Source of the DNA: Pristiophorus japonicus
Lineage: Eukaryota
Assembly: GCF_044704955.1 (NCBI RefSeq)
Contig: NC_091980.1
Span: 92,008,001 to 92,072,000 of the forward strand
Reading direction: 5' to 3'
DNA length: 64,000 bases
Within the stretch, counting starts at the first letter, position 1. The number at the start of each line of letters is the position of its first letter. Of this stretch, positions 8,846 through 13,422 are shown piece after piece. Under the pieces are notes generated by a model. It did no database searches and was not told the DNA's origin. It was given only the letters and a program-made list of their open reading frames with translations. The translations under genes and the position numbers were made by a program.

Positions 8846-9584
8846 CAAACCTTATACATTTTACATAAGAACATAAGAACATAAGAATTAGGAACAGGAG
8901 TAGGCCATCTAGCCCCTCGAGCCTGCTCCGCCATTCAACAAGATCATGGCTGATCTGGCCGTGGACACAGCTCCACTTACCCGCCTGCTCCCCGTAACCC
9001 TTAAATCCCTTATTGGTTAAAAATCTATCCGTGATTTGAATACATTCAATGAGCTAGCCTCAACTGCTTCCCTGGGTAGAGAATTCCACAGATTCACAAC
9101 CCTCTGGGAGAAGAAATTCCTTCTCAACTCGGTTTTAAATTGGCTCACCCGTATTTTGAGGCTGTGCCCCCGAGTTCTAGTCTCCCCGACCAGTGGAAAC
9201 AACCTCTCTGCCTCTATCTTGTCTATCCCTTTCATTATTTTAAATGTTTCTATAAGATCACCCCTCATCCTTCTGAACTCCAACGAGTAAAGACCCAATC
9301 TACTCAATCTATCATGATAAGATAACCCTCTCATCTCCGGAATCAGCCTAGTGAATCATCTCTGTACCCCCTCCAAAGCTAGTATATCCTTCCTGAAGTA
9401 AGGTGACCAAAACTGCACGCAGTACTCCAGGTGCGGCCTCAGCAATACCCTGTACAGTTGCAGCAGGACCTCCCTGCTTTTGTACTCCATCCCTCTCGCA
9501 ATGAAGGCCAACATTCCATTCGCCTTCCTGATTACCTGCTGCACCTGCAAACTAACTTTTTGGGATTCATACACAAGGAGCAGC

Positions 9585-9672
9585 GGCCGCGTGGCGTAAT
9601 GGATAAGGTGTCTGACTTCGATTATAACCACAATGTTATCAGAGATTACAAGTTCGCGTCATACCGCGGTCA
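9585..9672 (+). tRNA. tRNA-Arg(TCG) pseudogene with a 16-nt insertion at the canonical intron position
   Basis: GGCCGCGTGGCGTAATGGATAAGGTGTCTGACTTCG-A-[TTATAACCACAATGTT]-ATCAGAGATTACAAGTTCGCGTCATACCGCGGTCA matches the vertebrate Arg-TCG body. Anticodon at 9618-9620. The T-arm is mutated. Confidence 0.88.
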
Positions 9673-9701
9673 ACTAACTCACCGCGTGAAATTTTGTCAG
9701 T

Positions 9702-9773
9702 TCCTCGTTAGTATAGTGGTGAGTATCCCCGTCTGTCACGCGGGAAACCGGGGTTCAATTCCCCAATGGGGAG
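9702..9773 (+). tRNA. tRNA-Asp(GTC) pseudogene
   Basis: 72 nt, about 5 differences from the vertebrate tRNA-Asp consensus, three of them CpG-type transitions. Anticodon at 9735-9737. Confidence 0.95.
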
Positions 9774-12476
9774 GCAGTTGTTTCAAAATGAAGAATTTTC
9801 CCCAGATCGGGGGGGCACTGTTTAATGTTTTTTGTTTGCTCCCAAAAGAGTTCATGCACAAGGACCCCAGGTCCCTCTGCACCGCAGCATGTTGTAATTT
9901 CTCCCCATTCAAATAATATTCCCTTTTACTGTTTTATTTTCCAAGGTGGATGACCTCACATTTTCTGACATTGTATTCCATCTGCCAAACCTGAGCCCAT
10001 TCGCTTAACCTATCTAAATCTCTTTGCAGCCGCTCTGTGTCCTCTACACAACCTGCTTTCCCACTAATCTTTGTGTCATCTGCAAATTTTGTTGCACTAC
10101 ACTCTGTCCCCTCTTCCAGGTCATCTATGTATATTGTAAACAGCTGTGGTCCCAGCACTGATCCCTGTGGCACACCACTCACCACCAATTTCCAACATGA
10201 AAAGGACCCATTTATCCCGACTCTCTGCTTTCTGTTAGCCAGCCAATTCTCGATCCATGCTAATACATTTCCACTGACTCCGCGTACCTTTATCTTCTGC
10301 AGTAACCTTTTGTGTGGCACCTTATTGAATGCCTTTTGGAAATCTAAATACACCACATCCATTGGTACACCTCTATCCACCATGCTCGTTATATTCTCAA
10401 AGAATTCCAGTAAATTTGTTAAACATGATTTCCTCTTCATGAATTCATGTTGCGTCTGCTTGATTGCACTATTCCTATCTAGATGTCCCGCTATTTCTTC
10501 CTTAATGATAGCTTCAAGCATTTTCCCCACAACAGATGTTAAACTAACCGGCCTATAGTTACCTGCCTTTTGTCTGCCCCCTTTTTTAAACAGAGGCATT
10601 ACATTAGCTGCTTTCCAATCCGCTGGTGCCTCCCCAGAGTCCAGACAATTTTGGTAGATTATAACGAATGCATCTGCTATAACTTCCGCCATCTCTTTTA
10701 ATACCCTGGGATGCATTTCATCCAGACCAGGGGACTTGTCTACCTTGAGTCACATTAGCCTGTCCAGCACTATCCCCCTAGTGATAGTGATTATCTCAAG
10801 GTCCTCCCTTCCCACATTCCCGTGACCAGCAATTTTTGGCATGGTTTTTGTGTCTTCTACTGTGAAGACCGAAGCAAAATAATTGTTTAAGGTCTCAGCC
10901 ATTTCCACATTTCCCATTATTAAATCCCCCTTCTCATCTTCTAAGGGACCAACATTTACTTTAGTCACTCTTTTCCGTTTTATATATCGGTAAAAGCTTT
11001 TACTAACTGTTTTTATGTTTTGTGCAAGTTTACTTTCATAATCTATCTTTCCTTTCTTTATTGCTTTCTTAGTCATTCTTTGCTGTCGTTTAAAATTTTC
11101 CCAATCTTCTAGTTTCCCACTAACCTTGGCCACCTTATACACATTGGTTTTTAATTTGATACTCTCCTTTATTTCCTTGGTTATCCATGGCTGGTTATCC
11201 CTTCTCTTACCGCCCTTCTTTTTCACTGGAATATATTTTTGTTGAGCACTATGAAAGAGCTCCTTAAAAGTCCTCCACTGTTCCTCAATTGTGCCACCGT
11301 TTAGTCTGTGTTTCCAGTCTACTTTAGCCAACTCTGCCCTCATCCCACTGTAGTCCCCTTTGTTTAAGCATAGTACGCTCATTTGAGACACTATTTCCTC
11401 ACCCTCAATCTGTATTACAAATTCAACCATACTGTGATCACTCATTCCGAGAGGATCTTTTCCTAGGAGATCGTTTATTATTCCTGCCTCATTACACAGG
11501 ACCAGATCTAAGATAGCTTGCTCCCTTGTAGGTTCTGTAACATACTGTTCTAAGAAAGAATCCCGTATGCATTCTATGAATTCCTCCTCAAGGCTACCCT
11601 GTGCGATTTGATTGGACCAATCGATATGTAGGTTAAAATCCCCCATGATTACTGCCGTTCCTTTTTCACATTCCTCCATTATTCCCTTGATTTTTGCCCG
11701 CCCCACCGTGAAGTTATTATTTGGGGACCTATAAACTACACCCACCAGTGACTTTTTCCCCTTACTATCTCTAATCTCCACCCATAATGATTCAACATTT
11801 TGTTCATTAGAGCCAATATCGTCTCTCACAACTGCCCTGATATCTTCCTTTATTAACAGAGCTACCCCACCTCCTTTCCCTTCTTGTCTATCTTTCCGAA
11901 TTGTCAGATACCCCTGTATGTTTAATTCCCAGTCTTGGCCCCCCTGCAACCACGTTTCTGTAATGGCCACCAAATCATACCCATCTGTAATGATTTGTGC
12001 CGTCAACTCATTTACTTTATTTCGAATGCTGCGTGCGTTTAGGTAGAGTGTTTTAATACTGGTTTTTAAACCATGATTTTTAGTTTTGATCCCTCCTGCA
12101 GCCCCTTTATACTTATACATATTGTCCCTTCCTATCACCTTGTGGTTTACACTTACCCCAGTGCTACTCTGCTCTGTTGCCTCCTGCCTTTTGCATTCTT
12201 TCTTGGGGTCCTGTTCATCTGAGCTCTCACCCACTCTAACTAGCTCAGAGCCCTCTCCTGGGTTCCGAATACTCCTTGCATTGAGGCACCGAGCTTTCAT
12301 GCTTGCCTTTTTATTACACTTTGACCCTTTAGAATTTTGCTGTCAAGTGGCCCTTTTTGTTTTTTGCCTTGGGTTTCTCTGTCCTCCACGTTTACTCATC
12401 TCCTTTCTGTCTTTTGCTTTTGTCTCCATTTTGTTTCCCTCTGTCTCCCTGCAATGATTCCCATCCCTCTGCCATA

Positions 12477-13422
12477 TTAGTTTAACTCCTCCCCAACAGC
12501 ACTAGCAAACACTCCCCCGAGAACATTGGTTCCGGTCCTGCCCAGGTGCAGACCGTCCGGTTTGTACTGGTCCCACCTCCCCCAGAACCGGTTCCAATGC
12601 CCCATGAATTTGAATCCCTCCCTGCTGCACCACTGCTCAAGCCACGTATTCATCTGAGCTATCCTGCGATTCCTACTCTGACTAGCTCGTGGCACTGGTA
12701 GCAATCCCAAGATTACTACTTTTGAGGTCCTATGTTTTAATTTAGCTCCTAGCTCCTTAAATTCATCTCGTAGGACCTCATCCCTTTTTTTATCTATATC
12801 GTTGGTACCAATGTGCACCACGACAACTGGCTGTTCACCCTCCCTTTTCAGAATGTCCTGCACCCGCTCCGAGACATCCTTGACCCTTGCACCAGGGAGG
12901 CAACATACCATCCTGGAGTCTCGGTTGCGGCCGCAGAAATGCCTATCTATTCCACTTACCGTTGAATCCCCTATCACGATTGCTCTCCCACAATTTTTCC
13001 TGCCCTCCTGTGCAGCAGAGCCAGCCACGGTGCCATGAACTTGGCTGCTGCTGCCCTCCCCTTTTGAGTCATCCCCTCAACAGTACTCAAAGCAGTGTAT
13101 CTGTTTTGCAGGGGATGACCGCAGGGGACCCCTGCACTACCTTCCTTGCACTGCTCTTCCTGCTGGTCTTCCACTCCCTATCTGGCTGTGGACCCTTCAC
13201 CTGCGGTAAGACTAACTCGCTACACGTGCTACCCACGTCATTCTCAGCATCATGGATGCTCCAGAGTAAATCCACCCTCAGTTCCAATTCCGCAACGCGG
13301 ACCGTCAGGAGCTGGAGGCGGATACACTTCCCGCACACGTAGTCGTCAGGGACACCGGAAGTGTCCCTGAGTTCCCACATGGTACAGGAGGAGCATATCA
13401 CGTGACCAAGCTCTCCTGCCAT
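12477..13422 (-). pseudogene. CR1 ORF1: N-terminal zinc finger/leucine zipper plus SGNH esterase domain (one frameshift)
   Basis: CSSC...CGKC followed by a heptad repeat, then GDS, VHIGTND and DGLHL esterase blocks in ORFs 13087..13422 and 12477..13028. Confidence 0.9.

Follow-up and report, generated by a model that had tools for sequence, protein, structure and literature searches.

Introduction

In human, introns are found in tRNA-Tyr(GUA), tRNA-Ile(UAU), tRNA-Arg(UCU), and tRNA-Leu(CAA), as described in sections of PMC10275265, PMC10485636, PMC10539383, and PMC9023262, and the supplement of a survey of mammals and insects reports introns in four tRNAs (PMC9023262). In three of these sources (PMC10275265, PMC10485636, PMC10539383), the anticodon-intron pair is defined as the pairing of C32 or U32 with a purine at the antepenultimate position of the intron. 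Lineage-specific gains of tRNA introns are known in yeasts, and families that contain intron-bearing as well as intronless genes are usually composed of genes of different origins, according to excerpts of PMC4090602. For sharks, a preprint based on tRNAscan-SE reports tRNA loci in large numbers, many of them with introns; no isoacceptor is named in its text, in which “Arg” and “proline” have 0 occurrences, and it presents no splicing evidence. A search of mostly open literature found no paper on an intron in a vertebrate tRNA-Arg(UCG), although the automatic annotation in GtRNAdb may show one; excerpts of PMC8450103, PMC4033280, and PMC4536317 added nothing on this point.

Chimeric retrocopies of small RNAs and LINEs have been described, i.e. 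U6/L1 and tRNA/L1, and both template jumping and RNA ligation prior to reverse transcription have been named as routes to them (sections of PMC13174262). Tx1 elements that target other transposons and add small RNAs are also known, as is the Tx1-mobilised SINEU, for which template switching has been described (sections of PMC4494074).

Here, we analysed a stretch of 64,000 nt from Pristiophorus japonicus (NC_091980.1, positions 92,008,001 to 92,072,000; “the window”), which contains a tRNA-Arg(UCG) body interrupted by 16 nt. Very probably, the interruption represents a true 37/38 intron of an amplified tRNA-Arg(UCG) family, with TSEN and RTCB as the likely splicing enzymes. The copy in the window is a dead retrocopy, probably captured by a Tx1 element.

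Results

The tRNA-Arg(UCG) body in the window

The 5′ exon comprises tRNA positions 1-37 (9585..9621, plus strand), with the anticodon TCG at 9618-9620, C32 at 9616, and A37 at 9621. It is followed on the same strand by the 16-nt insert at the 37/38 site (9622..9637) and by the 3′ exon, positions 38-73 (9638..9672), which ends in A73 and is decayed, with a 1-base deletion and changes in the T arm and the B box. The body is bordered by a 5′ leader (9580..9584) and a 3′ trailer (9673..9695), both on the plus strand; likeness to the array genes described below begins at 9580-9582 and stops at 9695, where the trailer ends in a T4 run that is likely a Pol III terminator.

The initial annotation had placed the insert one base 3′ of the anticodon, and ARAGORN agrees: with a relaxed threshold, it calls a tRNA-Arg(tcg) and places an intron of 16 nt at 37/38. 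With the default threshold, ARAGORN makes no call of this copy, and the Rfam score of 19.3 bits lies below the cut-off of 29 bits, so that the copy has to be regarded as decayed. Compared with an intact array gene it has 11 differences, including the 1-base deletion, and with its T-arm changes it does not qualify as a functional tRNA gene in the stems and the B box. A native upstream flank is absent, and a target-site duplication is found in its place. Judged by its sequence, the window copy is thus no gene, but a dead and decayed retrocopy of an unspliced Arg precursor. Each of its 10 substitutions recurs among 94 array copies, in 1 to 41 of them, and the closest array matches are themselves decayed copies, and therefore the parent array gene was likely already degenerate.

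An intron-bearing Arg(UCG) family in the genome

The own assembly of 5.9 Gb was searched with a pattern composed of the anticodon arm and an insert of 6-30 nt, yielding 1,228 loci versus 0 for a reversed-pattern control, and therefore the insert is not a chance arrangement. Its uniqueness to this decayed copy, which had been named as the outcome that would speak against an intron, can be dismissed, and the proposed family of intron-containing Arg-TCG genes does exist. Its loci are mostly organised in tandem arrays with periods of 2.3-3.1 kb, a spacing that was also seen for many of the best 40 of 1,514 candidates scored in a search with the window copy. A single intron sequence is found in identical form 192 times, and 522 loci combine an exact 3′ exon with G at intron position -3. 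Unplaced contigs may have inflated or collapsed these array counts; intron-bearing source arrays are also present on large contigs.

For a closer view, 93 Arg copies were taken from 30 stretches of 10 kb picked around pattern matches; as array copies are related, they do not represent independent trials. The insert is exactly 16 nt long in 92 of the 93 copies, the anticodon is TCG in 91, and A37 is present in 86. The A at position 37 that had been noted in the window copy is thus real and the family state, so that decay of the window copy is excluded as its origin. A73 is found in 83 of 92 copies. About half of the copies (46/93) are near-intact, with at most two exon changes, and 47/93 have three or more. 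An intact array gene has all stems paired and differs from the intronless gene of the same genome solely at positions 37 and 73. Two array types that are 77.6% alike over 1.8 kb have exons identical at 72 of 73 positions, while 10 of 16 positions match in their introns and 65-80% in their flanks.

The initial annotation had considered a donor from a non-vertebrate source, and foreign DNA or a contaminant might be suspected since Arg(UCG) lies outside the four human intron families (sections of PMC10275265). This origin has next to no probability. The arrays, a single-copy intron-bearing gene, and the driver element are all present in the own assembly, including its large contigs, the exons differ from the own intronless gene only at positions 37 and 73, and the insertion lies within the host's own CR1 and has a target duplication.

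The genome also contains 30 matches to intron-bearing Arg(UCU) genes (L072-L091), with introns of 12-20 nt that belong to several types. A loan of the intron and of A37 from these genes was rejected, as their introns look unrelated and the single-copy intron-bearing Arg(UCG) gene has G37. A further tandem array, with a period of about 1.2 kb, contains Arg(ACG), Met, and Ala genes (L134-L138 and L259-L263; C1, 476 Mb), and some of its Arg copies read CCG or have A37.

Geometry of the putative splicing substrate

The features expected of a TSEN-type intron are present in the family, i.e. the 37/38 site, an intact body, and, by sequence, a pair between N32 and position -3. C32:G(-3) is retained in all 46 array copies with at most two exon changes and in 72 of 93 overall; each of the 21 copies lacking it has at least three exon changes. 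Among 76 distinct loop-intron types, which are related, an average of 3.76 of five bases pair in the canonical register, versus 2.53 or fewer in six slid registers, and the five-base-pair helix with the anticodon loop is perfect in nine types.

Thermodynamic predictions give a different picture. In most whole precursors, ViennaRNA assigns C32:G(-3) a probability of 0.00-0.29, reaching 0.89 solely in the isolated arm of one type, and it prefers an intron-internal ATAAC/GTTAT helix over the anticodon-intron pair. The pairing of ATAAC with GTTAT had been pointed out for the window copy, and this helix is indeed predicted there; it is, however, not the anticodon-intron pair that defines a TSEN substrate. 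That pair is also present in the window copy, where C32 (9616) faces G(-3) (9635).

An intronless gene and a single-copy intron-bearing gene

The intronless form of the Arg(UCG) anticodon arm occurs once in the genome in a pattern search. A DNA search with this intronless gene returned, as the best 40 of 97 candidates, the gene itself, 38 intron-length matches, and one partial match on C17, which was rejected as a second intronless Arg(UCG) gene because it is an Arg(ACG). The intronless gene has G37, G73, and a trailer unlike that of the arrays.

In addition, a single-copy intron-bearing Arg(UCG) gene was found (L193:1501-1589; C32:13374867-13374955). Its exons are identical to the intronless gene at 73 of 73 positions, including G37 and G73, and all four stems are fully paired. 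Its 16-nt intron matches the array introns at 11-12 of 16 positions, a T run follows directly downstream, and the flanks are unrelated to those of the arrays. We infer that this gene represents the founder type of the arrays. Ile(AAU), Ser(CGA), and Arg(UCU) genes are loosely clustered around it, and it offers the best anchor for dating the intron by synteny.

A Pro(UGG) family in the same array unit

A second family of intron-bearing genes is specific for Pro(UGG). The respective pattern has 416 matches, and five intronless copies are found among the first 100 matches listed. The inserts are again 16 nt long and located at 37/38, and they belong to two intron types. In the sampled stretches, U32:A(-3) is present in 101 of 103 intron-bearing Pro-like copies, of which 18 are within two changes of the intronless Pro gene. 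Pro(UGG) intron genes are found on C27, C176, C219, C946, C35, and C133 (e.g. L229:1335-1422 and L243:1094-1181), and ARAGORN often miscalls them as Leu(TAA).

Arg and Pro derive from one ancestral array unit. Their decay is reciprocal: either the Arg gene is intact and the Pro gene dead, or the Pro gene is intact and the Arg gene is dead and has lost its anticodon-intron pair (L231-L242 versus L227-L230 and L245).

Array-type copies without the intron

A genome search with the exact spliced-junction pattern including the 5′ exon found no copy with A37, and a broad pattern gave 745 matches, dominated by Trp(CCA) among the 100 listed. A pattern anchored in the 3′ part, with A37 at the spliced junction, had 37 matches, all of which were inspected: 29 belong to another tRNA-like repeat, five are variants of the Arg(ACG) arrays, and three are Arg(UCG) copies of the array type that lack the intron. 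The repeat (L258, L264-L271, L273-L274, L276-L290, L292-L294) is dispersed, has part of the 3′ arm in common with Arg, and is followed by a common downstream sequence; it is possibly the head of a SINE.

The three intron-free copies (L272, L275, and L291) are dispersed, unlinked, and 5′-truncated. Each lacks exactly the 16 nt, so that position 37 is joined to 38, and each carries the array marks A37 and A73. L275 consists of the exact spliced array body from 30 to 73 followed by the exact array trailer up to the T run. L272 begins at position 33, thus retaining only about five bases of exon 1, and has two changes and the array trailer. L291 (C16:46475975) comprises positions 11-73, differs at one of them, and continues with CCA. 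None of the three loci showed a target duplication.

It might be argued that the insert is never spliced and that the three copies arose by deletion at the DNA level or from the intronless gene. They are indeed few and all 5′-truncated, and between L291 and the intronless gene there are three G-to-A differences, two of them in CpG and two at the diagnostic positions 37 and 73, so that L291 alone could have originated from a G37/G73 gene by three such changes. The intronless gene cannot, however, explain L272 and L275, because it has G37, G73, and a different trailer. Moreover, exactly 16 nt at 37/38 are missing at three unlinked loci, while slippage at the short repeat of the intron ends would, by inspection, leave two extra bases. 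We therefore regard this explanation as very unlikely. The start of L291 at position 11 and its G26-to-A change are possible footprints of modified bases in reverse transcription, or else reflect truncation and CpG decay. Taken together, the three loci point to reverse transcription of spliced RNAs, and it is likely that the intron was cut out precisely, as read from three genomic copies. A search across sequencing runs gave 24 entries, each with a share under 0.2 and none of them RNA, which speaks neither for nor against transcription.

Precise removal could still be of little consequence if the arrays were a tRNA-derived satellite of transcribed pseudogenes, in which an insertion was amplified and is slightly cut by TSEN while the intronless gene supplies Arg(UCG) and no working pool is formed. 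The many copies with three or more exon changes (47/93), the existence of whole arrays without the anticodon-intron pair, A37 in place of G37, and the presence of an intact intronless gene and of Arg(ACG) arrays are all compatible with this possibility. Nevertheless, we consider it improbable, since the exons are conserved while intron and flanks drift, 522 loci have the exact 3′ exon together with G(-3), the exons of the single-copy intron gene are perfect, and a spliced copy, L291, ends in CCA.

Probable capture by a Tx1-clade element within a CR1-type LINE

The window copy is part of an insertion (9580-9850) that is flanked by 14-bp duplicates (9566..9579 and 9851..9864, both plus strand, one mismatch) and interrupts a CR1-type LINE on the minus strand (8863..13076, an extent that excludes the 5′ end). 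The CR1 contains, on the minus strand, an esterase ORF1 (12477-13076), an endonuclease (10750-12342), a reverse transcriptase (9934-10749), and a tail of tandem repeats (8863-8887). Downstream of the Arg precursor and on the same strand, a second captured precursor, pre-tRNA-Asp(GUC), extends with leader and trailer to a T run (9696..9799; gene 9702-9773), and the insertion ends with 50 bases from the 3′ terminus of a non-LTR retrotransposon of the Tx1 clade (9801..9850, plus strand), as shown by alignment with a full-length element. The Asp precursor is 94-95% identical to Asp genes in a tandem array on C23 (L002-L030), which has a period of 1.95 kb and is composed of Ser, Asp, and Ser/Leu genes.

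The full-length element (L252:1075-7109; C2) has two open ORFs of 703 and 1,306 codons. Its ORF2 encodes endonuclease, reverse transcriptase, and zinc-finger domains. The best named full-length protein match, on which the clade assignment is based, is ORF2 of Xenopus Tx1, with 49% identity across the length of the ORF; partial matches at 69-70% were to records from sharks and rays. A protein search with the C-terminal piece had no match. The similarity among copies of the element is 95-97%, and stacks of them at a single target are frequent. The 14-mer duplicated in the window represents the fixed Tx1 target within CR1, and the same 14-mer follows 13 of 14 Tx1 3′ ends examined.

The genome contains further dispersed Arg copies, 44 in 39 loci when the window copy and two near-duplicate places are excluded from the count. 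None of the 44 reaches more than 8 nt upstream of the tRNA, and the 3′ ends of 38 fall between +19 and +32, at a T run. The CR1 target 14-mer is found nearby at 27 of the 39 dispersed loci versus 0 of 28 array stretches. The window insertion has all features of a Tx1-clade chimeric retrocopy, i.e. the Tx1 3′ end, the target duplication, the fixed target, and the RNA ends, and it is likely to be one. One further locus, L071, is an inverted pair of Arg copies.

A SINE family with Arg head, Asp, and tail, which would require many copies with one head-tail junction, is not supported: no second copy of this combination was present among the best 40 scored matches, and other insertions carry different RNA combinations. 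In nine Tx1 insertions (L010, L064, L069, L093, L099, L107, L110, L151, and L155), up to three small RNAs are chained. They include 5S rRNA, a 5′ piece of U2, and the pre-tRNAs for Asp, Glu, Val, Lys, Phe, Met, Ile, Trp, and Tyr; some are joined to merely about 10 bases of the Tx1 tail. Tyr(GUA), an established spliced family that served as a control, was likewise captured together with its intron, and hence the unspliced state of the window copy is no argument against splicing.

Discussion

The Arg(UCG) intron is probably removed by TSEN and RTCB. Pol III transcription of the arrays would start near -6, stop at the T run, and take place in the germ line or the early embryo, because inherited retrocopies require transcripts at these stages. 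The oocyte-type (maternal) tRNA gene arrays of Xenopus are an analogy. TSEN would then measure from the tRNA body, make use of C32:G(-3), and cut at 37/38; RTCB would ligate the exons, and CCA would be added. The mature product would read CGA and have A37 in place of the G37 of the single-copy genes. Some observations run counter to this pathway: unspliced retrocopies (44 examined) greatly outnumber spliced ones (3), and many arrays are decayed, with the pair lost in 21 of 93 copies. Furthermore, A37 is unusual for a tRNA-Arg(UCG), and therefore the product may decode poorly.

In the window, the Tx1 endonuclease would have cleaved a CR1 at the fixed Tx1 target, and reverse transcription would have begun at the 3′ end of the Tx1 RNA itself and jumped to the pre-tRNA-Asp and then to the pre-tRNA-Arg, transcribed from a partly degenerate array gene. 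We infer that the small RNAs were joined by template jumping, the alternative being RNA ligation before reverse transcription.

As a wider proposal, which is possible but more doubtful than the above, sharks may have a second, massively amplified germ-line tRNA set that includes intron-bearing Arg(UCG) and Pro(UGG), has the A37 form, and depends on TSEN. If so, nearly all tRNA that reads CGA would be TSEN-dependent, and the amplified Arg(UCG) would be unable to take m1G37, as it carries A37. The single-copy genes with identical bodies would record a clean gain or loss of an intron in a vertebrate, and Tx1 capture would have left fossils of every stage, i.e. the primary transcript, the spliced form with trailer, and the mature form with CCA.

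The four-family view of vertebrate tRNA introns is based mostly on mammals. A fifth and a sixth family, with a conserved single-copy member and fossil spliced products, would be evidence of intron gain or loss in the tRNA genes of vertebrates. The gene pair that is identical except for the intron offers a natural test of the role of tRNA introns in modification or expression, and an abundant A37 form of Arg(UCG) would probe the need for m1G37 in CGA decoding. The ARAGORN miscalls, with Pro genes called as Leu-TAA, bear on tRNA counts in shark assemblies.

Comparison with known systems

The mechanism is ordinary, while the isoacceptor and the scale are unusual. The intron resembles canonical TSEN/RTCB introns in its location at 37/38, its length of 16 nt, a body able to form the L-shape, C32 with an antepenultimate G, and a helix between anticodon and intron. 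In contrast to the human intron-containing tRNAs, the shark isoacceptors are Arg(UCG) and Pro(UGG), and the family comprises more than 1,200 copies in tandem arrays with A37 and A73. The intron sequence is also unlike the 30 Arg(UCU) introns of the own genome. The locus contributes a single-copy intron gene with perfectly conserved exons, the combination of A37 and A73 as a signature, and spliced fossils in which this signature is present. Unlike the mixed families described in sections of PMC4090602, the intron-bearing and the intronless shark genes share one identical body of 73 nt.

As in known chimeras, a single target duplication encloses a truncated non-LTR element with a small RNA on its 5′ side, and, like the Tx1 elements described in sections of PMC4494074, the shark Tx1 targets another transposon. 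Human tRNA/L1 chimeras are few (21) and mostly half-length and antisense (sections of PMC13174262), whereas the shark copies are whole unprocessed precursors that are mostly in sense orientation, often chained, and inserted at one fixed CR1 site.
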